Positions 18,834 through 57,985 of a stretch of DNA of 64,000 nucleotides are shown here, one piece after another; the first letter of the stretch is position 1, and each line of letters begins with the position of its first letter. The notes under the pieces were generated by a model. It was not told the origin of the DNA. It saw only the letters and a program-made list of their open reading frames with translations, and made no database searches. Both the position numbers and the translations under genes were made by a program. Origin of the DNA: an uncultured Pseudomonadota bacterium (GTDB lineage: Bacteria; Pseudomonadota; Alphaproteobacteria; Rs-D84); the NCBI GenBank assembly GCA_946613885.1, contig CAMOGA010000001.1, positions 23,640-87,639 of the forward strand. The letters run 5' to 3'.

Positions 18834-18933
18834 AGTGCTTTTTATTCTACATCAATAAAAAAATAAATCAACATTTAGTAATTGCAATACTAAAAACCTG
18901 GTGTATAATGAATATATATTCAAGGAGTAAATT

Positions 18934-19221: not shown

Positions 19222-19231
19222 AGGGTAAATC

Positions 19232-19492
19232 ATGACGAACAAAAAACCAGGTTATCAATTTACTATATTTGATCAGATATCTAACAATGAACAACAGTCA
19301 TTTGAAAAGTTTCAGCAGGCAATCCAAGATTTACATAAACAGATGGCCGAAAAACAAAAAGAAATTGATTCATTAAGGTCATCTGACCCAGATGATGAAG
19401 ATTATGAAACCAGAAATGAAATAAATGCAATCGAACGTGAATTACGTTTCTTGCGCAATCAATATGATACATTAATGGAAAAACACAAATAA
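19232..19492 (+). CDS. Small acidic coiled-coil protein, hypothetical.
   Basis: Lies 10 nt after ihfA and is followed by a strong terminator. No recognisable motif. Confidence 0.4.
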   Translation: MTNKKPGYQFTIFDQISNNEQQSFEKFQQAIQDLHKQMAEKQKEIDSLRSSDPDDEDYETRNEINAIERELRFLRNQYDTLMEKHK

Positions 19493-19507
19493 AAAATACT
19501 ATTTATA

Positions 19508-19534
19508 AAAACCGTCCAAACGGACGGTTTTATT
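19508..19534. terminator. Bidirectional rho-independent terminator.
   Basis: accgtcc-aaa-cggacggttttatttt. Confidence 0.7.
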
Positions 19535-22569: not shown

Positions 22570-22663
22570 GATAATGAATAATAGCCACATAAAAATAAAA
22601 TTCAACATAAACAAACGCTTTTTTTTATGTCAAATTTATGATATAATAACCCCCAGAAGGAAC

Positions 22664-24148
22664 ATGAAAAAGAATTTTTTTGCCTTTTTATGCACGTTTG
22701 CGGCACCGTTGATGTCTTTCGCATCGAACGAGGGTGTTCCGTCTTATTATTCTTCGACGACAACCATAAACGCAAACAACGCAGGATATACCGAATATCA
22801 AAAATACGGATATACAAAATACGTTGGAAATTCCGGACATAAACAGATTTTATCTTCACAAAATTATTCTTACCAGGTTCCACGTCCAAAGATGCCAAAA
22901 CAATCGCGTGGCGCAATGACTGTAAATGGTATTGCACAATCTACCGATGAACATAATACAACTATTTTTGCCGACTATTCCCGCCGTTTCGCAGATTTTG
23001 AATTCAAAACAGGTGTTAATTCTGTTTTGGAATGGGACGATATGATTTTTAATGAAATCAATGTTGGCGCGAAACATGTATTTGACATCCGTGGTTTTGA
23101 TTTGGCTGTATATGGTTCATATACATACGGTGATTTAGCCAGCGGTGGCCTGTCGATGGATTACGATTTGGAACCATATGATTATGCATATCCAACGGAT
23201 GGTATTTTCACAATCTCTATGGGCGGACAAAGTGGCGATTTAAACAAATTAAAACTTGGTGTTGCGGCCCACCACATATGGAATTTGGGCGGATGGAAAT
23301 TAACACCACATATTGGTTATGAAATTTTCAAACATAATTTGAAAATGGATAATCATTTATACCCAAATCCTGGTGTATATTTGCCTTTGATGACAAATTC
23401 CGGCGATTACGTATATGGGGATACCGCTGGGAATTACTACGCGGTTGCGACAAATGTAGATATCGCCGATGATTCTGGGTTATATCAAATCTGTATGGGT
23501 CCCGAAGATATCAAGGTTGTTTTGGCATCATCTGGTGGCACAAACATCGATGGTGTTTTATATCCTTTGGGCAACACATTAACAACAGTTGATTATAATT
23601 CCAGCATGGGTAATATTCCATGGGGCGTATCTGAGGGCGACTGTGTTGTAATTGGTGGCGATGGCATTATTCGTGTTGACGGCACAACACATGTTTACAA
23701 CACAACATGGTCTGGTTTTTATCTGGGCTTAGAAATTGAAAAACAAATGACATTGGCAGATAATTTGCGTTTGTACGCACAAATCAGCATGCCAAAATAT
23801 TCATCCGAAGGCACATGGCCAAATCGTGATGATTGGCAACAAAACCCCAGTTTCTTGGACGAAGGCGACAATGGTGCTTTCGCATACGAGGCAGAAATGG
23901 AATATTCTTATCGCCTGTCTGACCGGTTACAGTTATCGTTAAAGGCCGATACAAACTATTTCCATATTGGTAAAATCCCGGGTGAATTATATGTTGCAGA
24001 AACCACTATATATTACGAAGATGAAAACAATCCGGGTAATTTTATCGCAGAAACACAACCCGCATACACAGAATATGTATCTGAATCTTTGAAAGAAGCA
24101 AACTGGCAATCTTTTGGTTTACATATTGGATTCAAATATTCGTTTTAA
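22664..24148 (+). CDS. Outer membrane beta-barrel protein, hypothetical, ending ...FKYSF.
   Basis: AGAAGGAA Shine-Dalgarno sequence before ATG 22664. Signal peptide MKKNFFAFLCTFAAPLMSFA. Terminal Phe. Confidence 0.6.
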   Translation: MKKNFFAFLCTFAAPLMSFASNEGVPSYYSSTTTINANNAGYTEYQKYGYTKYVGNSGHKQILSSQNYSYQVPRPKMPKQSRGAMTVNGIAQSTDEHNTTIFADYSRRFADFEFKTGVNSVLEWDDMIFNEINVGAKHVFDIRGFDLAVYGSYTYGDLASGGLSMDYDLEPYDYAYPTDGIFTISMGGQSGDLNKLKLGVAAHHIWNLGGWKLTPHIGYEIFKHNLKMDNHLYPNPGVYLPLMTNSGDYVYGDTAGNYYAVATNVDIADDSGLYQICMGPEDIKVVLASSGGTNIDGVLYPLGNTLTTVDYNSSMGNIPWGVSEGDCVVIGGDGIIRVDGTTHVYNTTWSGFYLGLEIEKQMTLADNLRLYAQISMPKYSSEGTWPNRDDWQQNPSFLDEGDNGAFAYEAEMEYSYRLSDRLQLSLKADTNYFHIGKIPGELYVAETTIYYEDENNPGNFIAETQPAYTEYVSESLKEANWQSFGLHIGFKYSF

Positions 24149-24164: not shown

Positions 24165-25217
24165 ATGAAATATAAATTGCCAATATTTTGCGGGATATTT
24201 TCTTTGGCATTGATTGGAAATGCATTTGCAGACCGTGGCGCATTTGATTTAGAACGCTGGGACAATATCATGTCAGATATTCGCCGTCAGGCCACATCCC
24301 AAAACATTGGTGTTCAAACAATTGATGAAACATTAAAATCACCTGCGTTTATACCCGGCATTGTAAAATCAGACCGCAATCAATCAGAATTCAAATTAAC
24401 ATTGGAACAATATCTGAAACGCACAGTCAGCACCGACCGTATTCAAACAGGCCTAAAAAAACGTGCCACGTATCCAACACTATTATCACGCGTTGAACAT
24501 AAATTTGGTGTTCCGCGTAATGTAATATTGGCTTTTTGGGGCATGGAATCAAATTATGGCGCGGTCAAATCCAGATATCAATTAACCAATGCGTTTTTAA
24601 CACTGATTTATGAGGGTCGCCGCGCAGAATTTTTCACGAAACAATTATTAGCATTGATGAAAATTGCCGACAAAAATAAATTATCCATACGGGATATACA
24701 TGGTTCTTGGGCGGGCGCAATGGGACATTTTCAATTTATCCCGACAACATTGGCACAATACGGCGTTGACGGAAACGCAGACGGACGTGTTGATATTATA
24801 AACAGCATTGGCGATGCAATGTTCAGTGCAGGAAATTACCTGAATAAACTGGGTTGGGCATATAACGAACCAATTATTTATCACGTCACATTACCGGCAG
24901 ATTTTAATCGCGATTTAATGAACGGGGACACAAAGCAAACATTAACACAATGGGCAATGATGGGTGTAATGAATATGGACGGAACGCCTTTATATCCGGA
25001 CGACACAACTGTTGGCTTAATTGCAGACACAAAAACAATTGCCGAACAAGATTTATATAAAACCGAAACAACCAATGAAAATCCAGATGCAGATATTGCA
25101 CCAAAACCGGTTATACACGCATATTTAACATACCCAAATTTTTACAGAATAAAAAAATGGAATAATTCATCATGGTACGCAATTGCCATCGGCGAATTGG
25201 CCGATAAATTAAAATAA
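24165..25217 (+). CDS. mltB: Lytic murein transglycosylase (MltB/Slt35 family).
   Basis: AFWGMESNYG and GAMGHFQFIPTT motifs. Signal peptide. Confidence 0.8.
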   Translation: MKYKLPIFCGIFSLALIGNAFADRGAFDLERWDNIMSDIRRQATSQNIGVQTIDETLKSPAFIPGIVKSDRNQSEFKLTLEQYLKRTVSTDRIQTGLKKRATYPTLLSRVEHKFGVPRNVILAFWGMESNYGAVKSRYQLTNAFLTLIYEGRRAEFFTKQLLALMKIADKNKLSIRDIHGSWAGAMGHFQFIPTTLAQYGVDGNADGRVDIINSIGDAMFSAGNYLNKLGWAYNEPIIYHVTLPADFNRDLMNGDTKQTLTQWAMMGVMNMDGTPLYPDDTTVGLIADTKTIAEQDLYKTETTNENPDADIAPKPVIHAYLTYPNFYRIKKWNNSSWYAIAIGELADKLK

Positions 25218-26276: not shown

Positions 26277-27245
26277 ATGGCTATAAAAGTTCGCGACTAC
26301 CAGGTCCGATTAACACGAAACAAAGAAGAACGCAAACAGGTTCGTCAATTAAGATATGAAGTGTTCTGTCTAGAAGAAAACGCATCCGCCACAGAAGAAC
26401 AAAAAAATCTGGGCGAAGAATATGATGCATATGATACCTATGCCGATTACATGGCGGTTTTTCATAACGGTAAAATTGTCGGAACATATCGTATTATTGA
26501 TCGCGATGCGGCTGAAAAAATGGGCGGTTTTTATACAGAAAACGAATTTAATTTATCAAAAATTAAAAAAGTTCATGGCAACATCGCAGAAATGTCCCGT
26601 GCATGTGTTAAACCTGAATATCGTGAAAACGGTTTAGTAATGCGATTGTTATGGGCTGGATTATGCGAATACGTTGTCAAACGCAAGGTTGTAATTTTAT
26701 TCGGTGTGCCGTCTTTTGTTGGAACTAATCCTGCACAATCGGCCCAGGCATTATCTTACCTGTATTATAATTATTTATCACCATCGCATTTACGTGCGAC
26801 TGTGTTAAAAGAAAACCTGGACCCATCTGTTGATCCACGTATGACCCAAATGAACATTTTGCCACGTGCATTTGTAGACGAAGACGAAGCAAAAAAGCAA
26901 ATGACCCCATTAATCAAGGGCTATTTGCGTTTGGGTGCAACATTTGGTCGTGGGGTATTTATTGACAAGGGCTTTGGAACATATGATGTATTTGTTTTGG
27001 TTCAAACAAAAAACGTTGATAAAACATATCAAAAACATTTTGCAGGTTCCGAAGATGCCTTTGCTGAATTTGGCATCAAAGAAGGACCTTTGCACATATT
27101 AACACGTATTATCATGTCGCCAATCACTGGCGCAGGCAAGGCAATCCGTGCATTTGGCGAATTGTTTATGCGCGAAGATGCCGATGATATCGAATACATT
27201 GACAAAGAAAATTCCGAAGAATCAGAAAATGGGGAAAATCAATAA
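26277..27245 (+). CDS. olsB: Ornithine-acyl-ACP N-acyltransferase OlsB-like (GNAT-fold, hemolysin-like acyltransferase).
   Basis: N-terminal domain VRQLRYEVFCLEEN...YDAYDTYADYMAV...GTYRII. Immediately followed by, and 1 nt overlapping, a PlsC-family acyltransferase: the olsBA arrangement. Confidence 0.65.
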   Translation: MAIKVRDYQVRLTRNKEERKQVRQLRYEVFCLEENASATEEQKNLGEEYDAYDTYADYMAVFHNGKIVGTYRIIDRDAAEKMGGFYTENEFNLSKIKKVHGNIAEMSRACVKPEYRENGLVMRLLWAGLCEYVVKRKVVILFGVPSFVGTNPAQSAQALSYLYYNYLSPSHLRATVLKENLDPSVDPRMTQMNILPRAFVDEDEAKKQMTPLIKGYLRLGATFGRGVFIDKGFGTYDVFVLVQTKNVDKTYQKHFAGSEDAFAEFGIKEGPLHILTRIIMSPITGAGKAIRAFGELFMREDADDIEYIDKENSEESENGENQ

Positions 27246-28054
27246 TGAAAATTCGTAAACCAAATATTTTTGTTATATCAATAAAATTTGTATGGTTCCT
27301 GTTGGCATGGGTTTTGGTATTTATAAACGCATTTATTTTACTGTTTATACCCAAAAGTAAACTGTCGGTCAAATACATGCAATTTTTCATGCGTCAATTT
27401 AATTTTATGACTGGTGTTCGTTTCAAAGTTAACGGTAAATTGTCAAACAAACGTCCTTTATTATGCGTATGCAATCATATTTCAGTATTTGAATTGGCAA
27501 CTATGCCGGTGGCGTTTGGCGGTTCTTTTTTTGGTAAAAAAGAAATTTCAGAATGGCCTTTGGTTGGTTGGATTGCAAAAAAATTCGGTGTGATATTTAT
27601 TGACAGACGACCATCACATGCGGTTGAGGCATTAAATGCCATCAAACACGAATTGGATACTGTTGATTACCCAATGTTTATATTTCCCGAAGGCACATCC
27701 ACAAACGGCGCATATGTAAAACAATTCAAAAGTTCTATGTTTGATGTTGTTGAAAAAACCGGCGTAACGGTGCAACCTGTGGTTATTCATTATCGTTTAC
27801 GTGATGGAACGAAAATCAGTGATGAAGATATGGCAAATCATTTTGCTTATTTTTCCAACGCCAAAATGGATTGCGGTCCATTATGCAAAGTGGAACGCAG
27901 TGCATTTATGCAGGTTTTTCACATCATGACATTGGGCGGATTTTTGGTTGAAATTGATGTATTACCTGTTCCCGACTTGTCGGGTATGGACAGAAAACAA
28001 ATGGCAGAAACCCTGCATAAAATAATTTCAGATGAATATATGAAAAATAAATAA
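27245..28054 (+). CDS. olsA: Lyso-ornithine lipid O-acyltransferase OlsA-like (PlsC/LPLAT family).
   Basis: NHxxxxE acyltransferase box (CNHISVFE) and FPEGT motif. N-terminal transmembrane segment. Confidence 0.65.
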   Translation: MKIRKPNIFVISIKFVWFLLAWVLVFINAFILLFIPKSKLSVKYMQFFMRQFNFMTGVRFKVNGKLSNKRPLLCVCNHISVFELATMPVAFGGSFFGKKEISEWPLVGWIAKKFGVIFIDRRPSHAVEALNAIKHELDTVDYPMFIFPEGTSTNGAYVKQFKSSMFDVVEKTGVTVQPVVIHYRLRDGTKISDEDMANHFAYFSNAKMDCGPLCKVERSAFMQVFHIMTLGGFLVEIDVLPVPDLSGMDRKQMAETLHKIISDEYMKNK

Positions 28055-32821: not shown

Positions 32822-35263
32822 ATGAAAAGATTTATCGCAGTATTAAGCAGTTTGTTGGTTTTACCCGCTTTTTCAGAGGTTGCACCAACATATTACGATG
32901 ATTCAATCGAATATTCTGACGGCGTTATCGATGACGCAGATACAGAATATGTTGATGAACAATCTGAATCCGTGGCGCAAAAAAACGTATCCCAACGGAC
33001 AACGATTAATCGTTCAACTGCATCGCGTGCGATAACATCTGGGAATAATGGTGTTGTATCACGCGCAAATGCTAATTCTCGTGCGGTTGCGTCTTCACCA
33101 CGTTCAACAACTGGAACGGCACGTGGAACTGCATCACGCACAACAAAAACAAATGCGGTTGTATCACGTACACCAACAACGACACGTGCAACGGTAAAAT
33201 CACGCAATACACAAAACACATCCAAGGCGACAACTGCCCGTGTTGGAACATCTAATAATCCAGTAATGCCAACATACAGAACACGTCAAAACAACACATC
33301 TGCCACGTTAAATGATTCTGGTGATGCATTGTATATCCCAAATTCGGCACGTGTTAGTGTTGCAAATCGTCGTTCATCTGCACGTATATCAACTACGGCA
33401 CGCGCATCAACGCCTGTAATTACCGAAGAAGATATATCCACAACCACATCAAATTTGACGGCTTTGGCGGAATTAACCGATTATTGCAAGGCACAATATG
33501 CGGCATGTATGGATAATTATTGTAATGTTTTGGACGATAATCAGGGTCGTTGTTCATGTTCCAAAAACATCAAAAATTACGCTAAGACAGAGGCAGCTTT
33601 GGCGGCTGCCACCGAAGAATTTCAAAATGTCGTTCAAAAAATTAAATACATTGGATTAACTGGCAATCAAATTGAAACTCTGTTTACCGAGACCGAGGCC
33701 GAATTAACCATGAAATCAAAAACAGATTCTTCACGGTTAAAAACCAGTTTGGACGCAATTAAAAAGAATATTGTTGACGTATCAACATCTTCATCTTCGT
33801 CTGCCGATTTAAACACCGGTTTATCATGGGATATTTCCGGATTGTTAAATGCAGATTTTACATCTGGATTTGATTTGTCATCATTTTTGGGTCAAAACAA
33901 CACATCAACATCCAACGTATCAAATCAACGTGGCGAAACATTATACAAAACCGCACAAAATCGTTGCAGAACGGCGGTGTTAAATTCTTGCACCAGTCAG
34001 GGTATTGATGCCAATGTGATTACAAATTCTTATGATTTGGAAATTGATAAACAATGTGTTGCCTATGAACGTTCTTTGAACGAGGCAAACAGTGAAATGC
34101 GTAACAATGTCACAAATGCGCAATTCATCTTGCAACAGGCACGTTTATTATTGGCACAAAACCGTAATTCTTACGATTTACGTGGTTGTGTGGCGGCAAT
34201 TGATTCATGTATGCAGGACGATTATGTCTGTGGCAGCGATTATGAATTATGTCTGGATCCAACGGGTAAGTATCTGGCAAACGGCGAAGTTGTCAAGGGT
34301 GGAACACCCGGCGTTTCTGGCGGTCAGAATATAAATACAACTCCTATATCTGATTCTGGCGAGAATACTTTAGACAAATGGACCAGTGGCGGTATGTATA
34401 ATTTATATTCTATCTGGAATTATGGTGATAATAAAAATGCGTGGGGCGTTGGTAAACAAGAAAACCTAGGTGGATATATTGATGCCGAATTAACAAATTG
34501 GAAATCAATCTATGCAAAATCCAAAGACACAACAAAAACAGATAGCATGGCAACATATTTGTTGCAAAAAATTGGTTATATCGACAGCGATGACAAAGTT
34601 CATGGTATGTGTGCTTCGGTTATGAAACAATGCCAAGATTACACATACAGCAACCAGGCATCGAATAACAAAAAATATATTCCTGCGAATGAAGTTGTTC
34701 GTCAATACCTGGCATCTACATTATCAAAGATAAAGGTTCAACAAGATTCAATTTTGTCTGATTATGCCGAGGGCTGCCGTTCTGACGTTCAATCATGTTT
34801 ATCAACAAACGGTTATGATGATTCAAATACATCATCCACCGCATCAAAAACCGCGGTTAACGCATGTGCCGCCGAAATTACAACATGTATGTCTGTTGGC
34901 GGATACCAGGTTAAAGATGGCGTAAAATTAACTCTGCGCGCAATGTCAGATTGGGTTGCAAGTATTTTAATCAATTGCCCAGTCAACACATATCTGGTTG
35001 ATGACGGTATTGGTGATGGGACTGTAATCGGTTCCACAAATACTACTGGCACAGCAACACAATGTAAACCTTGTGGATACCCATTTATATATACCAGTGA
35101 CGGAGACAACACAAATCGCCGCACCACAAATATGGCAACATCATCTGGCGGTCAGGCAACAATTTGTACTTGCCCAGAAGGTTATGACGATTACATAATA
35201 ACCGATGACAGTAACACCAGAACATTGGGTTGTATAGAACAAACAACAACGTCTGGTAATTAA
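32822..35263 (+). CDS. Large secreted protein with an N-terminal Thr/Ser/Arg/Ala-rich low-complexity region and a Cys-rich C-terminal domain.
   Basis: Signal peptide MKRFIAVLSSLLVLPAFS. The TARGTASRTTKTNAVVSRTPTTTRATVKSR low-complexity region. More than 40 Cys in the C-terminal 550 aa. Confidence 0.55.
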   Translation: MKRFIAVLSSLLVLPAFSEVAPTYYDDSIEYSDGVIDDADTEYVDEQSESVAQKNVSQRTTINRSTASRAITSGNNGVVSRANANSRAVASSPRSTTGTARGTASRTTKTNAVVSRTPTTTRATVKSRNTQNTSKATTARVGTSNNPVMPTYRTRQNNTSATLNDSGDALYIPNSARVSVANRRSSARISTTARASTPVITEEDISTTTSNLTALAELTDYCKAQYAACMDNYCNVLDDNQGRCSCSKNIKNYAKTEAALAAATEEFQNVVQKIKYIGLTGNQIETLFTETEAELTMKSKTDSSRLKTSLDAIKKNIVDVSTSSSSSADLNTGLSWDISGLLNADFTSGFDLSSFLGQNNTSTSNVSNQRGETLYKTAQNRCRTAVLNSCTSQGIDANVITNSYDLEIDKQCVAYERSLNEANSEMRNNVTNAQFILQQARLLLAQNRNSYDLRGCVAAIDSCMQDDYVCGSDYELCLDPTGKYLANGEVVKGGTPGVSGGQNINTTPISDSGENTLDKWTSGGMYNLYSIWNYGDNKNAWGVGKQENLGGYIDAELTNWKSIYAKSKDTTKTDSMATYLLQKIGYIDSDDKVHGMCASVMKQCQDYTYSNQASNNKKYIPANEVVRQYLASTLSKIKVQQDSILSDYAEGCRSDVQSCLSTNGYDDSNTSSTASKTAVNACAAEITTCMSVGGYQVKDGVKLTLRAMSDWVASILINCPVNTYLVDDGIGDGTVIGSTNTTGTATQCKPCGYPFIYTSDGDNTNRRTTNMATSSGGQATICTCPEGYDDYIITDDSNTRTLGCIEQTTTSGN

Positions 35264-48484: not shown

Positions 48485-51400
48485 TTATTCCGCAGGCACA
48501 ACTGTCCACCCCTTGAATTTATACCCCTGTTTAGCCGGTGCATCCGGCAAAGATATGGTCGTACCATATTCGCATGATCCGGTTGATATTTCATTACCTT
48601 CTTCATCATGATACACCAATGTTATGTCGTTTGCACTGCACGATGCATTATATTGCCCATTGTTTTGGATATCGCCATATCCAGTATTACAAGACGTTGT
48701 ATATGTACAAACATTATTCACAACACTTAACGAACAACTGGCATTTGTCGCCGCACATGCCTGACATTCACTCCATTGTGCTGTGCACGTTGTATCATCA
48801 GTTATTGTAAATGTTCCGCCCGCTGCAACAGTGTTTCCACCGCATGACCAATTGGTAAATACACTGTTCGTTTTTGAACATGTATTCGACAATGTGGTGA
48901 CGGCTTCGTCAGATATATATTCTGTTGAATCTGTTGGTGCGGTTCCGGTTCCATCGCCACATGAATATGTGACAGTATATGTTTCGGTTCCTTGTTCAAT
49001 CCATTTGGCATAAAATGTTTTATTACCGGTGGCGGATGCCGATATTGTCTGTGATATCGCACAAGATGTTAATCCAGAATCAGTGCACCATCCCTTAAAC
49101 ACATAACCTTCCCTGGTTGGAACACCATTAATCGTTGCGCCGGTTCCAAAAGTATACGTTGTTGGTGCATTGGCATAATTTGTTCCACAATTACCCGCAG
49201 TGGCAGCATTACAATTTTCAACATAAGGAACAAAAGCATGCGCAACATTACCCAATTCAAATTGAACATTAGTTGCCTCACCATTTGCCGGAGTTATATC
49301 AGTAGAATAATTATTGGATGAGAGTTGAAGCCAAACATATCTGGTATTTGACAAGGTTGTAAACGTATAAGTAGTAGTAGATGAAGACACCCATCCGCTA
49401 TCTCGTAAATAAGGATTAGAAGTACTGCTTTTAACACTATTTGCATATTGTTGCACAGCCAAACGCAAATTTCCTGTTCTGGATATAGTATATGTAGTAT
49501 TAGGTGTAACCGGTATTAAATTGACAGCATGGATACGTTTAGAATAATTTCCATTGTTATCATTATACCAATACCCGCCCCCCTGGGCCCATTGATTATC
49601 AAACAAGTTGCAATAAGCTGCACACGATACCCCGCCAGTCAAATCATATGTAATATTATAAGTACTCAGTGAACATGATGCATTATATTTACCATTGTTT
49701 TGAATATTTCCATACCCAGTATTGCAAGATGTTGTATATGTACAAACATTATTCACAACACTTAACGAACAACTGGCATTTGTCGCCGCACATGCCTGAC
49801 ATTCACCCCATTGTGCTGTACATGTTGTATCATCAGTTATTGTAAATGTTCCGCCCGCTGCAACAGTGTTTCCACTGCACGACCATCCAGTAAATATATC
49901 ACCTGTCTTGGTGCAGGTATTGTTTGCCACCGTCACAGATGAACCAGATTCATATTCTGTTGAATCTGTTGGTGCGGTTCCAGTTCCATCGCCACATGCA
50001 TATGTGACATTGTAAAAATCAACCTCGCTGCAACTGACATTATATGCGCCATTGTTTTGAATATTTCCATATCCAGTATTGCAGGATGTTGTATATGTAC
50101 ATGTATTATTTACTACGCTTAATGAACACGATGCATTTGTCGCCGCACATGCCTGACATTCACTCCATTGTGCTGTGCATGTTGTATCATCAGTTATTGT
50201 AAATGTTCCGCCCGCTGCAACATTTGTTCCACCGCATGACCAATTGGTAAATACACTGTTCGTTTTTGAACATGTATTCGACAATGTAGTGACGGATTCA
50301 TCAGATATATATTCTGTTGAATCTGTTGGTGCGGTTCCAGTTCCATCGCCACATGCATATGTGACATTATATGTTTCGGCATCCGTATTAATCCATTTAG
50401 CATAAAATGTCTTATCACCAGTGGCAGATGTTCCGATTGTTTGTGACATGGCGCAGTTTTGTAATTCCGCATCTGTACACCATCCAGCAAACACACTTCC
50501 GGATTTAGTTGGCGTTCCCCCAACTGTTGCCCCTGTAAGCTCATAATATTGTGTTGGTGCACCAGAATAATTTGTTCCACTATTCATCACGTATGAAATA
50601 TTATATTTTTTCACACACAAAACCTTACTATTCCAATAACTTTCCCATCCTGTTGTATATTTTTGTGTTCCTGACGGACAAGAAGTCGACAACCCTGTAT
50701 TTGCAAATGTCCTGACCATCGTACTGGTTGTATTTGAACCACGTGGGGTTATACCCGCAAAAAAGGTTGCAGGTATATATCCTGACAATTTACTACAACC
50801 TTCAAATGTACTAACAAATTCATTAATTGCACCAACAGTTATGTTTGCAAACAAACCGTCTGGCAACGATGTTAACTTAGAACAACCGTAAAATGTATTT
50901 CCAAAGGCCCCAGCTGCCCCACCAGTTATTTTTGCAAACAACCCTGCTGGTATTGATGCTAAACTGGTACAATTTAGAAACGTTGCCACAAAAAGGCTTT
51001 GTTGAGCAGGTACAGAAACAGCATTTGGAAAAAACAAATTTTCTGGGATTGCTGTTATACCAGTATTACTAAATGTACTGGAAAACATCGCGGTTGCAGC
51101 CGATGTATAACCACTAAACAAAGTTGCAGGAATTGATTTTAAATTGTTTGCATTACTAAATGTTCCAGCAAAACGTGGTTGCGCACCATCTGCTGGATTT
51201 TCGGAAATATACGGAAATATCTCTGATAAATCGCCAGAAATAGATGCTATTTTATTCGCCTCATCCGAAGAGCCGCCCATAAACGATATTGCAGCAATTT
51301 GCATACTTGTATTATAATCAGTCGCGGTACCGGAAAATTTAACTGTTCTAGCATTTGCATATGACCACGTGCATGTATATGTTGTATCAGTAGTACCTGT

Positions 51401-51634
51401 ACGTGTAATAATCTTACCAGAAACATCGGACGCTGTACTACTTAACGTTCCACCAGTACCACAATCAACATTAAATGTTCCAGCAGCAGATAAAGAAAAA
51501 CTCAAACGGGATGTCGAGGATGTTGTTGTAACAGAAAAAGGATACGTTACTGCATTTGCCACACCCATTGCACAAAACATAAAAACAACAGTTGCAAATA
51601 CGCATGATAAAATACCATCAACGAATCGTTTCAT
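48485..51634 (-). CDS. Giant secreted or surface protein, 1049 aa. Architecture: signal peptide, BspA-type leucine-rich repeats, Listeria-Bacteroides repeat (Flg_new-like, GYxFxGW...FYAKW) domains, and a triplicated module of about 120 aa with a Cys-rich end (CQACAATNASCSLSVVNN.CTYTTSCNTGYGNIQNNG).
   Basis: Signal peptide. Repeated IP(A/E)(T/N/G)LF... LRR units. Three GW-containing repeats (SVFAGWCTD, GYVFKGWCTD and a terminal GYKFKGW). Near-identical DNA direct repeats. Confidence 0.7.
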   Translation of the reverse strand: MKRFVDGILSCVFATVVFMFCAMGVANAVTYPFSVTTTSSTSRLSFSLSAAGTFNVDCGTGGTLSSTASDVSGKIITRTGTTDTTYTCTWSYANARTVKFSGTATDYNTSMQIAAISFMGGSSDEANKIASISGDLSEIFPYISENPADGAQPRFAGTFSNANNLKSIPATLFSGYTSAATAMFSSTFSNTGITAIPENLFFPNAVSVPAQQSLFVATFLNCTSLASIPAGLFAKITGGAAGAFGNTFYGCSKLTSLPDGLFANITVGAINEFVSTFEGCSKLSGYIPATFFAGITPRGSNTTSTMVRTFANTGLSTSCPSGTQKYTTGWESYWNSKVLCVKKYNISYVMNSGTNYSGAPTQYYELTGATVGGTPTKSGSVFAGWCTDAELQNCAMSQTIGTSATGDKTFYAKWINTDAETYNVTYACGDGTGTAPTDSTEYISDESVTTLSNTCSKTNSVFTNWSCGGTNVAAGGTFTITDDTTCTAQWSECQACAATNASCSLSVVNNTCTYTTSCNTGYGNIQNNGAYNVSCSEVDFYNVTYACGDGTGTAPTDSTEYESGSSVTVANNTCTKTGDIFTGWSCSGNTVAAGGTFTITDDTTCTAQWGECQACAATNASCSLSVVNNVCTYTTSCNTGYGNIQNNGKYNASCSLSTYNITYDLTGGVSCAAYCNLFDNQWAQGGGYWYNDNNGNYSKRIHAVNLIPVTPNTTYTISRTGNLRLAVQQYANSVKSSTSNPYLRDSGWVSSSTTTYTFTTLSNTRYVWLQLSSNNYSTDITPANGEATNVQFELGNVAHAFVPYVENCNAATAGNCGTNYANAPTTYTFGTGATINGVPTREGYVFKGWCTDSGLTSCAISQTISASATGNKTFYAKWIEQGTETYTVTYSCGDGTGTAPTDSTEYISDEAVTTLSNTCSKTNSVFTNWSCGGNTVAAGGTFTITDDTTCTAQWSECQACAATNASCSLSVVNNVCTYTTSCNTGYGDIQNNGQYNASCSANDITLVYHDEEGNEISTGSCEYGTTISLPDAPAKQGYKFKGWTVVPAE
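48690..50600. repeat. Three near-identical intragenic direct repeats (each at least about 360 bp; copies near 48700, 49740 and 50090).
   Basis: tcatcagttattgtaaatgttccgcccgctgcaaca recurs at 48797, 49835 and 50189. The ORF-track phantom ORFs 48783..49013 and 50175..50405 are near-identical. Risk of assembly collapse. Confidence 0.8.
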
Positions 51635-51803: not shown

Positions 51804-52493
51804 ATGGCAAAGGTTATTGAACCACCGATTTTAATGTCACGAATTTTGGCATTTGTGCTGGCTGCATCTATTGTGGTGTTGGCGGCATTGGGGTTCGTTT
51901 TATATAAAATGATTCCACTAGAACGGCCAGAGGTTTTCTTTCTAATCAATGCGACACGTTCTGTTAATGTTGTTATTGAACCGTTTGATGCCAATAACGC
52001 AAACAATACATCTATTGAAAATTATAAACGTGGTTTTATTCGTGAATACATAATTGCACGAAACGAATTAAACGCAAATCCAATTATCACTCGCAATAAT
52101 TGGAATAATATTGTAAAACCTTGGTCTGGTAATACGGTTTACAAGAATTTTACCAGTACCAGTTTATATCGTAAATATATGCGCAATACGCAACCGCAAA
52201 ATGTATCGTGCTATGTAGATTTTTCTGATCCAGAACACTCGGATGCAATCATAAAAACAAACCGTAATGATTATACTGTGTATTTCAGGTGGATTTGCAA
52301 AAATATTTCTGGACAGCCGACAACAAAAAATTATAAGATACAAATAAAGATACAAACAGATTTGGACAAACGTATCAGTGGAACCATGGAAAACCTGGAA
52401 AAATTAAAAATAAATCCGTTGGGAATCCAGGTTACACAATACAAAATTCAAGATGACAAAGATCCTTTGAGTTCTGACGTTATCGGAAAATAA
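51804..52493 (+). CDS. Bitopic inner-membrane protein, putative VirB8/DotI-like T4SS component.
   Basis: A short cytoplasmic N-terminus, one transmembrane helix (ILAFVLAASIVVLAALGFVLY), and a periplasmic domain of about 190 aa. Sits immediately upstream of VirB9-like and VirB10 genes on the same strand. The call rests on context and topology, not strong motifs. Confidence 0.4.
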   Translation: MAKVIEPPILMSRILAFVLAASIVVLAALGFVLYKMIPLERPEVFFLINATRSVNVVIEPFDANNANNTSIENYKRGFIREYIIARNELNANPIITRNNWNNIVKPWSGNTVYKNFTSTSLYRKYMRNTQPQNVSCYVDFSDPEHSDAIIKTNRNDYTVYFRWICKNISGQPTTKNYKIQIKIQTDLDKRISGTMENLEKLKINPLGIQVTQYKIQDDKDPLSSDVIGK

Positions 52494-52513
52494 GTTTGTT
52501 TCACAAGGTAAGG

Positions 52514-54022
52514 ATGAAGGACATGACATTACTAAACACATTAAAATTAAATGTTTCAATATTGGCGGTTATGTGTTCCATAACTCCTGCGTGGGCTGCG
52601 TTTCAAATGGCATGGGACAATCCAAACGCAAATATGGCAATGGGTTCATCTAAACCTGGGTACGCGAATTTAACATGGTCCACAGGGACAGTATTGCCGA
52701 TAAAAACACGCTCTGGTATGGCAACATTGGTGACATTACCAAATGGTGAAAAAATTGCAGATATTGTGACTGGTAACGACGGTTTGTTTAATATTGATTC
52801 TTCTGTTGGCGAACAATCAATGTACATTACACCAGCCTCAGGAAATACCGGTAATGATACAAACATGATTGTCACAGGACAATCTGGAAATAAATATATA
52901 TTCTATCTGCGTGCATATCCGGTTAATTCATCTGAAATCACATATTCCCAGGTTGATATTTCCACTGGTGGTTCGGGTGTCGTTGCGACAAATAATGCAA
53001 CACAAACAAATGGCTCTATGGGTTCGATATTCAAAAAATCTGCACCGAAAACGTCAACCATTGGTGTTGATGGCGAAGATTATGGATGGATAAAAACAAT
53101 GAAAATTGACCCGTCTGAATTTCGGTTTGATTTGGATATTTTCGTTCCTAATCCTGATGATTATGTAATCGCACCAGAACGTGTATGGCGCGACAGAATA
53201 TTCACTTATATTGATTTCGGTGACAAAGTTATTTCCATGACACAACGCCCTGTTGTATCTTTATTGGTCGAAGGTGGCGAAAGCCCTGTTGGTTTCCGCA
53301 CAGATGGCGAAGACGGCCGTCTATTAATTGTCGAGGCTGTTGGTGACATGGTTTTACGCAGTGGACAAAGAATTGTTTGTATAAAGAAACGTGCAAAACC
53401 GTTCTTGATTGCTGATACCGCATCTGTTATGGCATTGGCTGAGGCAAATGTTGCACAATCAATGGCTGCAAATCAATCATTGAACACAATTGCATATAAC
53501 GATGAACAATATGCAATGAACGCGAATATGAACGATTATTATTCAACTACACCAACCTATGTCTACAATCAACCAAATGATATGATGTATGCAAATGGCG
53601 CAATGTATGGAACAATGGATTATACAGGTTCAAATTCTGGTGCAAATATGATACCGACATCACATGCCACAGCGGGATCTTATTTACCACAAACAAATAT
53701 TCCTTTGATAACCAACTCGCAAACAGGCGTTGCGGTTGAATTAAAATCAGACACCTCGGTCAAGGCATTAAATGATTACTGGACAGATTTGTTGGCTAAA
53801 TTCAGCGGTGATGATGGTGCCGGTTTATTAACACCATATAAAAATAGCGTATTTTTCGCTGTTGACGAACAGGGGGTTGGTGATTTGGGCGCTGAATCTG
53901 CGACTGCACGGTTATACCGGTTAAGAATTGGGCCATTGTCTGATATCGATACAGCGCAACAATTATGTGATCAACTATTAAAATTCAGTGGTGCCAGTTG
54001 CCACGTGGTCAGAATACAATAA
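52514..54022 (+). CDS. VirB9/TrbG/DotH-like T4SS outer-membrane core protein with an extended Asn/Tyr/Met-rich C-terminal region.
   Basis: Signal peptide ending ITPAWA. A region resembling the VirB9 C-terminal beta-sandwich (YVIAPERVWRDRIFTYIDFGDKV...RPVVSLLVEGGESPVGFRTDGEDGRLLIVEAVGDMVLRSGQRIVCIKK). Start chosen at ATG 52514 after AAGG; the track start at 52496 is a TTG. Confidence 0.6.
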   Translation: MKDMTLLNTLKLNVSILAVMCSITPAWAAFQMAWDNPNANMAMGSSKPGYANLTWSTGTVLPIKTRSGMATLVTLPNGEKIADIVTGNDGLFNIDSSVGEQSMYITPASGNTGNDTNMIVTGQSGNKYIFYLRAYPVNSSEITYSQVDISTGGSGVVATNNATQTNGSMGSIFKKSAPKTSTIGVDGEDYGWIKTMKIDPSEFRFDLDIFVPNPDDYVIAPERVWRDRIFTYIDFGDKVISMTQRPVVSLLVEGGESPVGFRTDGEDGRLLIVEAVGDMVLRSGQRIVCIKKRAKPFLIADTASVMALAEANVAQSMAANQSLNTIAYNDEQYAMNANMNDYYSTTPTYVYNQPNDMMYANGAMYGTMDYTGSNSGANMIPTSHATAGSYLPQTNIPLITNSQTGVAVELKSDTSVKALNDYWTDLLAKFSGDDGAGLLTPYKNSVFFAVDEQGVGDLGAESATARLYRLRIGPLSDIDTAQQLCDQLLKFSGASCHVVRIQ

Positions 54023-54028
54023 AGCAAC

Positions 54029-56479
54029 ATGAAAAATATAAAACAACAATTTAATGATTTTCGTTCTACTACACCAAAGCATGTACAATGGTTATTGTTG
54101 ATTGCGGCGTTTGTGGTGGTAATCATTTTGTTGACTTTATTATTGACGCACAATAAATCTAAAAACGATGAAACTGTTGCAAAATCAAACATTACAACAG
54201 ATTTACAATATGCACCAATAAAACTTAAATTTGACAATATTATGGTTGGCGAAACAGATGAACAACAAATCGATGTGGAAGCGAACAATAATATTGTAAT
54301 TAATAATGTGAAAATCCCTGAATCAGATTTTAACATTACCAACGATTGTAATGGGCAATTAACAAAATCTTGCACTATATGGGTTGAATATGCGCCAACG
54401 CACGCAACAAACAATCAAACAACAAATTTAACAATTACATGGAACATTATTGGTGGTGAATCTGATGCACCGTTTACAAAAACTATTCCTATTACGCACA
54501 GTGCACAAACAAAACCAGAACCTAAACCGGAACCAAAACCAGAGCCAAAACCAGAACCTGTTGTGATTCCGGAACCAGAACCTGAACCAGAACCAATTGA
54601 AATCATTGAAGAAGAAGAATACGATGAACCAATTGACACATTGGACGATATTGTTGTTGAAAATCCATTTGTTGAACCTGAACCAGAACCAACACCAATA
54701 TTACCACCTGAAAAATGTTCTGAATTTGCAATTCCTGGGTATGACACATCTGGTCGTCAGATTGGATGGATAAAACCAGAACGTGGTGCAAACTATTTTC
54801 ATCCGTTTTCTGACAAAGATTGTTCAAATCCGACCGGTAAATATGATATGAATACTGGTATCATTACATCTTTGAAAGACGGTAAAAAGATTGGTACGGA
54901 TTCTGACCATATTGGATACCGTAATGTTCGCGACAGGAATTTAAAGATTCCGCAATTATCTGCACCAAATGCACCTGTGTCAGACGTTGCACAATTAAAT
55001 GGCGACGGAACATTCGGTGAAAACGCAGTTTGGGCAACAACAGACCATGATGATACCAGAAAATTTGATCGTTCAAAAAAATCCTCTAAATGGGATGAAC
55101 CTGAATATATGACATCCAATGCAGAACGCGTTATATCAACAAAACCACACGACAGAACATTTATATTACGTCAATTCAAACCAATTCCTGCAACAATTGT
55201 TTCAGAAGTTCGCGCAGACCCCAGTGTTTATGGTTGCAACAAAGCGGGACAAAATTGTAAACCAGAAAAAAATTACAGCATCCCAGTCCGTGCAACAGTT
55301 GACAGAAACGTTTATTCAGATGATGGACGCACAATTATATTACCAACCGGAACATTATTAATGGGATATTTGGCTGGCGAATTACCGGGGCCGTATCAAT
55401 CATTTGGTCGTATGAATATACGTTGGTATCAATTTATACGCCCTGATGGTATCGAATTTAATTTTAATGACGATGACACTGATCCATATTCTGGCGATGC
55501 CCAGGGACGTATGGGGGTTCCAGGTCATGGCAGCACTGATTATGTTGAACAAATGGTTATGCCAATTATAACTGCATTGGTTCCGGCGGCTGTTAATATG
55601 ATTGCCCCGATAACTGATACCGTTATAAATCAAATCGATTTGGATAATAATACAGTCGTTCAATCTGGAACAATTCGTTCATCTGAAATGGCAAAGCAAG
55701 ATATTATTAACACATGGAATAAAATCACGCAAAAATTAATTGTTGATTCAATTGATAACACCGTTCCACCGTTTTCAATTGCTGCTGGAACACGTATAAA
55801 CGTATTTTCACCTGTGGATTTGGTTGTTTCTTGTGGTGAAGACGAAACAGATACCAGTAGAAAATGTTCATTTGGCTACGGCAACAAATCACCACGTAAA
55901 TGGTCTGATTTGAAAAAAATCGAAGATGCATCTGATGATAACAAGGCCGCATGGCAGGGTCAGGTTCGTTCATTTAATCTAAATGAATACTGCGATTTTG
56001 ATGCAAAAAAGAACAAAGTAACCATCAAAGAAGGATCTGCATGGGCGGAATCTGGATACGATTATCGAACTGTATTGGCATATTGCGAATCACAAAATTA
56101 TACCGCCATTAATAACGCAAAAAATGCGGCATATAATAAACAAATTCAGGCACAATCTGCCGCCAAGAAAGAAGAATACGGCGCACAGTGGACAGCAGAA
56201 GACGGTTGGACAACCAATTTTACAGATGCAGATGCAGAAAAGAAATACAATACAGAAGTTCTGGGGTTAACATATGACGAAGATGGCAATATTGAAAATC
56301 CATTTACTTCATCAAAAAACGCGCAAATCGTTGACGAAGGTTTAACATGCGAAGATGGCTCTGCGCCAGATGCAAATGGATGTTGTGCCGGTGAAACATT
56401 TACCGATATGGGCGAAGACGGTTGGAATTGTTGCCCTGATGCAGGTGGTGATTGTTTCCCGCCTATCCCCATCGAATAA
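54029..56479 (+). CDS. virB10: VirB10/TrbI/DotG-family T4SS core protein with an N-terminal transmembrane helix, a (KPEP)n-rich linker and a C-terminal TrbI domain.
   Basis: The C-terminal block VRATVDRNVYSDDGRTIILPTGTLLMGYLAGE...SFGRMNIRWYQFIRPDGIEF...DPYSGDAQGRMGVPGHGSTDYVEQ matches the TrbI/VirB10 consensus. Pro/Glu/Lys linker KPEPKPEPKPEPKPEPVVIPEPEPEPEP. Transmembrane segment at residues 20-40. Confidence 0.8.
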   Translation: MKNIKQQFNDFRSTTPKHVQWLLLIAAFVVVIILLTLLLTHNKSKNDETVAKSNITTDLQYAPIKLKFDNIMVGETDEQQIDVEANNNIVINNVKIPESDFNITNDCNGQLTKSCTIWVEYAPTHATNNQTTNLTITWNIIGGESDAPFTKTIPITHSAQTKPEPKPEPKPEPKPEPVVIPEPEPEPEPIEIIEEEEYDEPIDTLDDIVVENPFVEPEPEPTPILPPEKCSEFAIPGYDTSGRQIGWIKPERGANYFHPFSDKDCSNPTGKYDMNTGIITSLKDGKKIGTDSDHIGYRNVRDRNLKIPQLSAPNAPVSDVAQLNGDGTFGENAVWATTDHDDTRKFDRSKKSSKWDEPEYMTSNAERVISTKPHDRTFILRQFKPIPATIVSEVRADPSVYGCNKAGQNCKPEKNYSIPVRATVDRNVYSDDGRTIILPTGTLLMGYLAGELPGPYQSFGRMNIRWYQFIRPDGIEFNFNDDDTDPYSGDAQGRMGVPGHGSTDYVEQMVMPIITALVPAAVNMIAPITDTVINQIDLDNNTVVQSGTIRSSEMAKQDIINTWNKITQKLIVDSIDNTVPPFSIAAGTRINVFSPVDLVVSCGEDETDTSRKCSFGYGNKSPRKWSDLKKIEDASDDNKAAWQGQVRSFNLNEYCDFDAKKNKVTIKEGSAWAESGYDYRTVLAYCESQNYTAINNAKNAAYNKQIQAQSAAKKEEYGAQWTAEDGWTTNFTDADAEKKYNTEVLGLTYDEDGNIENPFTSSKNAQIVDEGLTCEDGSAPDANGCCAGETFTDMGEDGWNCCPDAGGDCFPPIPIE

Positions 56480-56503
56480 GAAATAAAATTATTAAACAAC
56501 AAT

Positions 56504-56553
56504 AAACCGATTCGAATTAGTTTCCACAAAAACATATTTCGAATCGGTTTTTC
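56504..56553 (+). terminator. Strong rho-independent terminator after virB10.
   Basis: 13-bp stem aaaccgattcgaa...ttcgaatcggttt with a U-run. Confidence 0.75.
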
Positions 56554-56676
56554 GATTCGGTTTTCTATCTGTGGTTGTATCATTTTACACTATTCAATTT
56601 TTGTTTTACTTTCTAAAAGCGTTCAAATACAAACGCAAAAAAAACAAAAATAATTACAAAACCCAAGGAGAAAAAT

Positions 56677-57018
56677 ATGTTAAACACTCAAGAATTAAAT
56701 CAATCAGATAAATTTCAAAATGCCGAACAATTATGGTTCTGGTTTTTATATTCTAAATCAATTCAAAACGGATTTAATCATAATCACTCTTCTATAAAAC
56801 GGCCATGTGAATTACTGGATGTCGAAACATTGATAACCAAATTATATTTATCTGGAAAATTAAGCGAAGAACAATTAAACGTTATGAAAAAATTTGGTGA
56901 TAAAAGGCGCGCCCCCCACCAATATATATATTCTGAAAACAAATCTGCCGCATTATGGCAATCTGCAATGGAAACCTTAGAAAAATATGCACGCGCCAAA
57001 GGATGGATTATCGATTAA
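56677..57018 (+). CDS. Hypothetical protein, 113 aa.
   Basis: GGAG Shine-Dalgarno sequence upstream. No recognisable motif. Lies downstream of the T4SS module. Confidence 0.4.
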   Translation: MLNTQELNQSDKFQNAEQLWFWFLYSKSIQNGFNHNHSSIKRPCELLDVETLITKLYLSGKLSEEQLNVMKKFGDKRRAPHQYIYSENKSAALWQSAMETLEKYARAKGWIID

Positions 57019-57085
57019 TAATTTTCTTTCTGATTTATAGTAGGAGGTAAATCAGAACGTACAATTTTTAACCTAAGGATAAAAC

Positions 57086-57448
57086 ATGATTACATATATC
57101 GGATTTTCAACCCAGACACATAAACCAATTGCAAAATTTGTTTGTCATAAATTCAAACATTGTGCACCTGTTATTATTGATAAAAACAACGTCAAGATAT
57201 ACCAATTTACAAAATACAGAAATGTAAATATCATCGAAATAAAATTACGTGATATTAAAATTTTGAAACAATACGGTTGGATATTTATTAAATATAAAAG
57301 CAACAAAAAAACACCAAAATATAAACAAATACATGCGATAACATGTGTTCAATTTACAAAACAATTTTTTAACATACATAAAATCAGTATCCAAACACCT
57401 GACGCGTTATTAAAACATTTAAAAAAAGACCAATTTTTATCATCATAA
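57086..57448 (+). CDS. Hypothetical basic protein, 120 aa.
   Basis: AAGGA Shine-Dalgarno sequence upstream. Lys-rich. No motif. Confidence 0.4.
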   Translation: MITYIGFSTQTHKPIAKFVCHKFKHCAPVIIDKNNVKIYQFTKYRNVNIIEIKLRDIKILKQYGWIFIKYKSNKKTPKYKQIHAITCVQFTKQFFNIHKISIQTPDALLKHLKKDQFLSS

Positions 57449-57535: not shown

Positions 57536-57985
57536 ATGACACACAACAAAGTAACTGGTTTAATGGCAGAAAACATGCGAATTATCAGTCGCATGTCCAG
57601 TCGCCTGCAACCTATTTTCGAAGAAACATCCTGTGCATCGCGCCAACAAATGTCTATTTTGGTGCGGTTATATTTGGCTGGGAAAATAAAATTAAAAGAT
57701 TTTGCTGCGCGTGAGGTTATATCCACCGCCAATCTTTGCGTGATATTTCGTAAATTAGAATCTGAAAAATTGGTTATGCGTTCTGTGGATAAAAACGATC
57801 GCCGTGACACGTGGTATGAAGTGACAAAATCTGGACGAATAATGGCTGAAAAATTATTAGATAAATTTTTGACAGCACTGGAATCTTTGTGTAAGGTATT
57901 GCCCGAATCTGACAAACATGCATTGACAGAAACGGTAAAAACAATGAATAACATATTAAAAAAGATGGAGAATTTAAATGCGTAA
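57536..57985 (+). CDS. MarR family transcriptional regulator.
   Basis: Winged-HTH core with the DKNDRRDTWYEVTKSGR wing motif. Precedes the efflux genes with an 8-nt overlap. Confidence 0.75.
   Translation: MTHNKVTGLMAENMRIISRMSSRLQPIFEETSCASRQQMSILVRLYLAGKIKLKDFAAREVISTANLCVIFRKLESEKLVMRSVDKNDRRDTWYEVTKSGRIMAEKLLDKFLTALESLCKVLPESDKHALTETVKTMNNILKKMENLNA

Follow-up and report, generated by a model that had tools for sequence, protein, structure and literature searches.

A VirB8-VirB9-VirB10 type IV secretion core with a SPOR-like VirB9 tail, fixed in the chromosome of Candidatus Enterousia

We analyzed a 64,000-nucleotide stretch of DNA (hereafter the window; positions 23,640 to 87,639 of contig CAMOGA010000001.1, assembly GCA_946613885.1) that carries three adjacent genes for homologues of VirB8, VirB9, and VirB10, members of the core of type IV secretion systems (T4SSs). 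The host is Candidatus Enterousia, of the GTDB order Rs-D84. The three genes form an operon, which occupies a fixed site in the chromosome and shows strong purifying selection. Judged by its sequences, this module belongs to a distinct T4SS sub-family in which VirB9 carries an ancestral SPOR-like tail. The T4SS core families themselves are known; what is new is that such a core, pared down and with a SPOR-like fusion, is a fixed part of the chromosome in a prevalent, unstudied, reduced-genome gut lineage. We lean, with modest confidence, towards the view that the module is the core islet of a scattered, vertically inherited chromosomal type IVA (P-type, rvh-like) system of Enterousia. The operon is laid out as follows (positions are those of the window; aa, amino acids):

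51804..52493, + strand: virB8-like gene, 229 aa, Pfam VirB8 match
52496..54022, + strand: virB9-like gene, 508 aa from the first TTG, Pfam CagX match
54029..56479, + strand: virB10-like gene, 816 aa, Pfam TrbI match
56504..56568, + strand: terminator-like hairpin with a 13-bp stem and a U-rich tail, closing the three-gene operon

An earlier note on this DNA, made from the letters alone, had proposed an 8-9-10 core module ending at a strong terminator, and the five open reading frames (ORFs) that it listed are all present where it placed them. Its family assignments hold, as the three proteins score above the curated Pfam cut-offs: VirB8 (PF04335) reaches 50.9 bits against 23.2 (E 2e-13, profile positions 20–213 of 213), VirB9 (CagX, PF03524) 69.5 against 34.2, and VirB10 (TrbI, PF03743; aa 386–595) 51.2 against 35. 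The gene order and the terminator are borne out as well. Gaps of only 2 bp (virB8/virB9) and 6 bp (virB9/virB10) separate the genes, and the hairpin has a folding energy of −22.4 kcal/mol (z −4.0), equaled by none of 200 shuffled sequences. Single-sequence searches of solved structures barely detect the three proteins, but profiles built from orthologues do match T4SS core proteins. The N-terminal part of the VirB9 profile matches Xanthomonas citri VirB9 (6gyb, E 3e-5) and its C-terminal part matches R388 TrwF (7o3j). The VirB10 profile matches Helicobacter pylori ComB10 best (E 2e-8), and also CagY, TrwE, and X. citri VirB10. Pfam and NCBIfam scans at E values up to 1 gave no match to DotI/IcmL or DotH/IcmK, and the sole families found were VirB8, CagX/VirB9, and TrbI/VirB10/ComB10. 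Because no Dot/Icm family matched, we assign the system to type IVA; of the two origins that the earlier note had left open, IVA thus stands and a Dot/Icm-like one does not.

The distinguishing feature of the module lies in VirB9. The true start of the gene is likely the ATG at 52523, as gene callers give, which yields a protein of 499 aa. A signal peptide is predicted at aa 10–34 (52523–52597, cleavage motif AWA-A), and the remainder of the protein divides into these parts:

52667..53389, + strand: VirB9/CagX core, aa 58–298, N- and C-terminal VirB9 domains with an inserted Gly/Ser-rich loop (Pfam)
53390..53719, + strand: low-complexity linker, aa 299–408, rich in Asn, Tyr, Met, and Gln, variable in length and sequence among relatives
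53720..54019, + strand: C-terminal SPOR-like domain, aa ~409–508 (Pfam SPOR, PF05036)

On the window's VirB9 the SPOR model gives a partial match at threshold, 21.1 bits against a gathering cut-off of 21. The same model matches 10 of 16 sub-family members (best E 2.4e-5), and precomputed SPOR matches exist for several homologues. An AlphaFold2 model of the C-terminus shows the beta-alpha-beta-beta-alpha-beta order of SPOR domains, at low confidence (predicted local distance difference test score, pLDDT, of 46). Two cysteines, C491 and C502 in the 508-aa numbering, are conserved in this domain. Because of the matches in the window and in the 10 members, and of the predicted order of elements, we read the extension as a linker plus a SPOR-like domain, that is, probably a linker followed by a peptidoglycan-binding domain. 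The earlier note had remarked on an Asn/Tyr/Met-rich C-terminal extension as atypical; the stretch is real, yet it is not peculiar to this genome, being ancestral to the whole sub-family. The likeness to SPOR-domain proteins such as FtsN, DamX, and RlpA consists in the model match over the C-terminal ~100 aa and in the same predicted order of elements. The known SPOR proteins differ in being division or cell-wall proteins; for VirB9, with its match at threshold, binding of denuded glycan is putative. A full-text literature search returned no paper naming both VirB9 and a SPOR domain.

How widespread is this type of VirB9? An exhaustive phmmer search of 1.84 billion representative proteins gave 450 VirB9 matches, 79 of them below 1e-30. 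Most are 400–620 aa long, whereas ordinary VirB9 proteins have ~250–300 aa. The nearer members share the N-terminal motif LG..Q.AW.DP...GEGQ.KPGY, the VirB9 core, a variable linker, and a C-terminal domain of ~100 aa with two cysteines. More than 1,200 homologues of the window's VirB9 are detectable, and the best 120 clusters are 77–99% identical to it.

Relatives outside Enterousia show the module in different states of completeness. The closest cultured member sits in a complete conjugative T4SS with VirB2, B3, B4 (by Pfam), B6, B7, B8–B11, D4, and a relaxase. It is encoded on megaplasmid pMVF16-3 of Microvirga sp. VF16 (NZ_CP069357.1). Its VirB9 (550 aa, 31% identical over the core) shares the N-terminal LG..Q.AW.DP motif and ends in a Cys-Cys tail, which Pfam does not recognize as SPOR. 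Its genes run VirB8-VirB9-VirB10, preceded by a 58-aa "SPCAC" lipoprotein gene like that of the uncultured relatives L087 and L090. The Microvirga system differs from that of Enterousia in being plasmid-borne and complete (VirB2, B3, B4, B6, B11, D4, and a MobA/MobL relaxase), whereas Enterousia has three chromosomal genes at a secE-yidC site. Two uncultured gut/rumen lineages (VirB9 ~34–40% identical) encode the SPCAC lipoprotein, VirB8 (duplicated in one of them), VirB9-SPOR, a giant VirB10 of 1,400–1,600 aa, and VirB11. The closest chromosomal relatives have the order B8, B7-like lipoprotein, B8, B9, an extra gene of ~1000 aa, B10, B11. No VirB2–B6 gene was found among the called genes in the 9 kb upstream of L087. 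Because VirB11 is retained in these distant chromosomal relatives, the remaining T4SS parts would sit elsewhere in their genomes. Finally, a lineage represented by GCA_016735385.1 (VirB9 46% identical) has rpsB-tsf-virB8-virB9-virB10, then an unrelated secreted ORF of 135 aa, and no VirB11. A complete conjugative relative combined with progressively reduced chromosomal ones shows that the sub-family descends from ordinary P-type systems and that its chromosomal versions have been progressively stripped down.

The extra gene of the chromosomal relatives, found at 3622–6615 in L090 and 2539–5760 in L093, lies between virB9 and the giant virB10 (1421–1628 aa) and encodes 997–1073 aa. Its product has long Bflower-like repeats and begins, as VirB10 does, with a transmembrane (TM) segment and an Ig-like domain; it resembles a second copy of the N-terminal half of VirB10.

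We scanned one genome per species with a 16-sequence VirB9 alignment as query. At least 576 stretches hold a relative; the counts below refer to the best 80 (67–83% VirB9 identity). All of these are metagenome-assembled genomes of uncultured alphaproteobacteria from the guts of humans, ruminants, horses, birds, and mice; many bear the name Candidatus Enterousia, and one is a closed chromosome (OZ007020.1, 958,618 bp). About 75 of the 80 species share the order secE (−), virB8-virB9-virB10-orf113-orf120 (+), yidC (−), where orf113 and orf120 are two small downstream genes. All five genes are intact ORFs of constant length across these species. Selection was measured as the ratio of nonsynonymous to synonymous substitution rates (dN/dS; Nei-Gojobori, eight species pairs). 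VirB9 is the most conserved gene of the unit, with the identities given above and a dN/dS of 0.025–0.064. VirB8 is kept in 79 of the 80 related loci at 33–58% identity (dN/dS 0–0.14), and virB10 has a dN/dS of 0.06–0.24. The layout of the window also recurs on 13 independent contigs with an identical VirB8. Because the arrangement is seen on these contigs and in ~80 species, it is not a misassembly; the possibility, raised in the earlier note, that the module is a misassembled piece of a contiguous virB operon is ruled out.

These data also bear on whether the module might be without function today, a remnant left to decay after the loss of a T4SS or of an integrated conjugative element. The absence of neighboring T4SS genes and the high divergence of the proteins from the reference families would fit such a remnant. 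Its ORFs are however intact and of conserved length in ~80 species, with a dN/dS as low as 0.025, and it lies at a fixed site between housekeeping genes with a GC content equal to that of its flanks. Moreover, Enterousia genomes have a high coding density and no accumulation of pseudogenes (PMC12306168). The intact ORFs, the conserved synteny, and the low dN/dS exclude a decaying remnant as well as a mobile fragment of recent acquisition. The remnant reading is in effect refuted by the evidence of conservation and selection, and we give it next to no credence.

The lifestyle of the host is relevant to what the module may do. Rs-D84/Enterousia genomes are smaller than 1 Mb and lack respiration, most biosynthesis, including that of nucleotides, and standard transporters, and Enterousia has been proposed to live obligately on other cells, as a symbiont or a parasite (PMC12306168). 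The comparison with Rickettsiales-like symbionts in the earlier note agrees with what is known of the lineage, a reduced-genome alphaproteobacterium presumed to depend on a partner (PMC12306168). A literature search on RF32 or Rs-D84 together with T4SS gave nothing usable.

We read the anatomy of VirB10 from an alignment of 28 orthologues. A conserved cytoplasmic tail of 20 aa is followed by a TM segment (aa 21–39, 54089–54145) and then by these regions:

54197..54478, + strand: Ig-like (ASH / choice-of-anchor-D-like) periplasmic domain, aa 57–150, with invariant C107 and C115
54500..54706, + strand: Pro/Glu-rich (KPEP)n linker, aa 158–226, hypervariable between species (alignment)
54710..54928, + strand: conserved domain of unassigned fold, aa 228–300, with invariant C230 and C265 and the motif CSDFAFPGY..G.QIGWIKP
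55151..55828, + strand: TrbI/VirB10 beta-barrel domain, aa 375–600 (Pfam and PDB profile matches)
55829..56476, + strand: C-terminal extension, aa 601–816 (216 aa), with 10 conserved Cys, in Enterousia only (alignment)

The Ig-like domain matches Pfam ASH at E 7e-5 when the segment is isolated, below the gathering cut-off, and NCBIfam choice_anch_D at E 0.002. It is also kept in the distant relatives L095, L089, and L090. The (KPEP)n linker noticed earlier is real, visible both in the sequence and in the alignment. The domain at aa 228–300 is conserved out to L095 and L089 and has no Pfam match; a second variable linker sits between it and the TrbI barrel. Within the barrel, a conserved hydrophobic helix-loop-helix (aa ~500–575) is a candidate antenna projection. 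The C-terminal extension has no match in Pfam or PHROG, and the alignment shows it to be absent from L095, L089, L087, and L090. Its last 39 aa (56348–56464) hold a near-invariant seven-cysteine motif, C.DG..PD.NGCC.GE.YTDMG..G.NCCP..GGDCFPPI, in one copy per locus in 77 loci. VirB10 has 16 cysteines in total. Because this number fits a disulfide-bonded periplasmic or surface location, we infer that the Cys-rich extension may lie there. A weak FlgJ/GH73-like match at aa 639–703 found no support once the C-terminal segment was scanned alone. VirB8, for its part, has a single hydrophobic segment (aa 14–34, 51843–51905) followed by the periplasmic VirB8 domain, features by which it is predicted to be a bitopic inner-membrane protein.

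Several observations weigh against an rvh-like secretion system. The best NCBIfam models for the module are those of VirB9 and VirB10, yet scores fall far under the equivalog cut-offs: 46.1 against 217.7 for VirB9 (TIGR02781), 56.7 against 220 for VirB10 (NF038091), and 12.6 against 188 for the VirB8 equivalog. The search for further T4SS genes covered the 64-kb window, ~7% of one genome, and ~10 kb around the operon in 80 species. Database look-ups of proteins flanking the operon in the window yielded no identical entry, or just a 5.4-kb contig holding yidC and lspA. A Pfam scan of 30 further large ORFs of the window found no T4SS ATPase, pilin, VirB6, or coupling protein. With the VirB2, B3, B4, B6, B11, and D4 proteins of Microvirga and the VirB11 proteins of two uncultured relatives as tblastn queries, none was found in the window or around the operon. 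The earlier note was thus right that the window holds no ATPase or pilus genes. The SPCAC VirB7-like lipoprotein of L087, L090, and Microvirga has no homologue in the window or in 86 loci. In relatives virB11 directly follows virB10, but it is not at that position in Enterousia or in a second lineage, L095. Lastly, a T4SS goes unmentioned in published metabolic reconstructions of Enterousia, which sought means of interaction with partners (PMC12306168).

The 120 matches listed for the VirB11 of L090 are all 76–80% identical and belong to the L090-type gut clade, so they are uninformative on Enterousia; the one that we inspected (P0307) is located after virB9-X-virB10. A VirB4-family ATPase is the universal signature of a T4SS, accompanied by VirB6/VirB3 and usually by VirB11/VirD4.

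The same absences favor the main alternative, in which the core has been co-opted without ATPases: VirB4, VirB11, and VirD4 would have been lost and VirB8/9/10 kept as a peptidoglycan-anchored trans-envelope scaffold. Such a scaffold might tether the envelope, act as a passive conduit, or attach or join the cell to a partner cell, with the VirB10 Cys extension as a new functional surface. We regard this as possible but rather unlikely. Beyond the T4SS genes not found in the window or near the operon, it draws on the loss of VirB11 and VirB7 from their ancestral positions, on the appearance of a 216-aa VirB10 extension with a near-invariant seven-cysteine tail in the Enterousia lineage only, and on strong purifying selection despite a minimal genome. 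That published Enterousia analyses report no T4SS (PMC12306168) also agrees with it. Outer-membrane complexes of VirB7/9/10 homologues assemble without ATPases in heterologous expression. On the other hand, we know of no precedent for a functional VirB8/9/10 without VirB4, and the retained VirB8 and VirB10 cytoplasmic tail and TM segment imply a partner complex in the inner membrane. The inspected ~7% of one genome also limits what the absences can say. Other reduced alphaproteobacterial genomes keep scattered full systems; Neorickettsia and Wolbachia, with similarly small genomes, keep full rvh systems.

A bolder version, which we hold still more tentatively and think improbable, is that all T4SS ATPase and pilus genes have been lost from Enterousia, and perhaps from a second alphaproteobacterial lineage with a reduced genome. 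The selected VirB8/VirB9-SPOR/VirB10 would then make up a structure that spans the envelope, is anchored to peptidoglycan, and serves a new purpose, for instance as a partner-cell junction or metabolite conduit, and the VirB10 Cys extension would be its contact surface.

Comparison with the Rickettsiales speaks to the reading that we prefer, that of a core islet of a scattered rvh-like system. The rvh T4SSs are marked by scattered islets, duplicated virB4, virB8, and virB9, an islet virB7-8-9-10-11-D4, and a monophyletic lineage. They too are P-type systems of reduced-genome alphaproteobacteria with genes scattered in islets, one of which carries virB7/8/9/10/11(/D4); the main Rickettsia islet reads rvhB7, B8-I, B9-II, B10, B11 (PMC4676284). 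The likeness to split Rickettsiales islets suggested in the earlier note is supported by the rvh-like order in the relatives L090 and L087 (PMC4676284). L090, L087, and L093 share this order, including the duplicated virB8 flanking a small lipoprotein gene. The Enterousia islet differs in ending after virB10, with no virB7, virB11, or virD4 there. It differs also by its SPOR-like VirB9 tail and by the Ig-like domain and Cys-rich extension of VirB10, and the likeness is one of gene order. The hosts are different as well, Enterousia being gut-lumen Rs-D84 and not Rickettsiales.

If the module is indeed the core of such a system, its parts suggest how it may work. By homology, VirB10 is held in the inner membrane by its N-terminal TM segment, its Ig-like domain and Pro/Glu linker cross the periplasm, and it ends in the TrbI barrel; VirB9 is exported by means of its predicted signal peptide. 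By analogy with solved T4SS structures, VirB9 and VirB10 may assemble a ring-shaped outer-membrane core complex that VirB8 would link to an inner-membrane platform. The domain content suggests that the SPOR-like part of VirB9 binds peptidoglycan glycan strands and so secures the complex to the wall, perhaps where the cell divides or at its poles, and that the Enterousia-only VirB10 Cys-rich extension lies on the periplasmic or outer surface of the complex. As in the scattered rvh islets, the energizing ATPase, VirB4 at least, would be encoded at another locus. The machine might then serve contact-dependent exchange between this bacterium, poor in transporters and deficient in biosynthesis, and a partner cell that it depends on.

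The X-T4SS of X. citri, whose core (6gyb) matches the VirB9 N-terminal domain better than any other solved structure, is another system with an embellished core. It has an extra N0 domain on VirB7 and is used against neighboring bacteria with cell-envelope-degrading effectors. Enterousia differs in carrying its extra domains on VirB9 (SPOR) and VirB10, and the window has no identified VirB7 or effector/immunity pairs.

A third possibility is that the module is the 8-9-10 half of a ComB-like competence T4SS, importing DNA as a nucleotide source. H. pylori ComB has an 8-9-10 block (ComB8-9-10) at a locus separate from the ATPase gene, and Helicobacter comB6-10 and comB2-4 are separate operons. 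As noted, no solved structure matches the VirB10 profile better than ComB10; NCBIfam ComB10 is detected at E 6e-10. Its score of 38.9 bits is however far under the 300-bit cut-off and below that of the VirB10 model, and H. pylori belongs to another phylum. In the relative L087, the islet is immediately preceded by a gene for a ComM-like Mg-chelatase, and comEC (18865–21015) is the second gene after virB11. These neighbors could hint at DNA uptake or be a coincidence: the comEC adjacency is seen in this one distant relative only, beyond a gene on the opposite strand (gltX). The absence of nucleotide biosynthesis in Rs-D84 (PMC12306168) would give such a machine a use. It would require a ComB4 ATPase, and none was found in the window; moreover, among the relatives, the closest complete system is conjugative and has a relaxase. 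We therefore consider a ComB-like machine very unlikely.

Two small genes follow the terminator:

56677..57018, + strand: orf113, small protein with no signal peptide or TM segment, syntenic neighbor
57086..57448, + strand: orf120, minimal permuted NlpC/P60 (YaeF/YiiX/TseH-like) papain-fold Cys hydrolase, predicted; no signal peptide

The genes orf113 and orf120 lie ~200–350 bp beyond virB10, in the window also beyond the terminator, and probably form a transcription unit of their own. In highly syntenic reduced genomes, their adjacency to T4SS genes is a weak sign of a functional link. The intact orf113 is found in 69 of 80 species (56–81% identity, dN/dS 0–0.14). It has no Pfam, NCBIfam, PDB, or PHROG match, no relatives detected outside Enterousia, and no homologue beside the T4SS genes of the non-Enterousia relatives. 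For orf120 no sequence-level match to any family was found, but its AlphaFold2 model is confident (pLDDT 86.5, predicted template modeling score 0.80) and papain-like folds are among its structure matches. His25, Gln40, and Cys87 are invariant and form a candidate catalytic triad (dN/dS 0.13–0.31). The His-to-polar spacing of 15 residues, with the Cys at a helix start, mirrors His49/Glu64/Cys154 of BcPPNE (PMC3142127). In its predicted fold, orf120 thus has the papain-like core, the permutation, and the His/polar/Cys triad of permuted NlpC/P60 enzymes. Because of the confident model matches and the BcPPNE-like spacing, we take it, on its predicted structure, to be a minimal permuted papain-like hydrolase. 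At ~115 aa it is shorter than YiiX of Escherichia coli (2if6), BcPPNE of Bacillus cereus (3kw0), and the Vibrio cholerae type VI secretion effector TseH (6v98), all 180–190 aa, and its third catalytic residue would be Gln. Lipids are the substrates associated with permuted NlpC/P60 enzymes, some of which act as toxins between bacteria (PMC12994826); orf120 is, weakly, a candidate effector or envelope-lipid enzyme. The two ORFs, which the earlier note had called unknown, are thus present and are neighbors conserved in ~69 of 80 species, one of them a likely hydrolase.

Elsewhere in the window, at 26277–28054 (+), a gene for an OlsB-like N-acyltransferase (Acetyltransf_5/FeeM) is followed by one for an OlsA-like acyltransferase, a pair that suggests aminolipid synthesis. 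It could be relevant if orf120 cuts lipid-amino acid amide bonds, as proposed for YiiX-like enzymes. A membrane-bound lytic transglycosylase gene (24165–25217, +; SLT_2, 291 bits) adjoins a homologue of the Protochlamydia-type outer membrane protein (Pom; 22568–24148, +). The transglycosylase is the only VirB1-like wall-opening candidate of the window and lies 27 kb from the operon.

On both sides of the operon the window has insertions that are specific to its species. Upstream, as the earlier note said, a giant protein is encoded divergently (48485–51634, −). It is not the leucine-rich-repeat protein proposed there: Pfam finds the Listeria-Bacteroides repeat (Flg_new) and no leucine-rich-repeat match. 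The gene has internal DNA repeats of ~340–460 bp with 84–87% identity, and its product measures 1049, 1533, or 704 aa in near-identical strains. Other Enterousia species lack it at this site, which marks it as an insertion of this species; it looks like a fast-changing surface or adhesin gene. Downstream, the MarR, OEP (TolC-like), HlyD-like, and RND efflux genes at 57536–62946 (+) occur only in the window's species; in the others, yidC comes directly after orf120.

Two paralogous secreted Gly/Ala/Thr-rich proteins with no Pfam family (12614–13558, −; 15652–16620, +; 36% identity over 323 aa, E 1e-34) are clustered with further unannotated secreted ORFs (13567–13980 and 16599–18404). Two large ORFs have no Pfam match (9113–11566, +, 817 aa; 32822–35263, +, 813 aa), the latter with a signal peptide and many Cys. 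We found no similarity among these two and VirB10, the window's three ORFs of ~815 aa.

A VirB9 fused to a SPOR-like domain defines a T4SS sub-family, a fusion for which we found no counterpart in the literature, and suggests a simple way in which a secretion core might be held to the wall of the cell, perhaps at its septum or poles. If an Enterousia genome truly lacked VirB4, it would be, to our knowledge, the first known case of a T4SS core kept for an ATPase-independent function. Rs-D84/Enterousia are widespread in human, ruminant, horse, bird, and mouse guts. How these bacteria obtain metabolites, and from which partners, could be approached through this conserved envelope-spanning operon, which offers a testable handle on their lifestyle.

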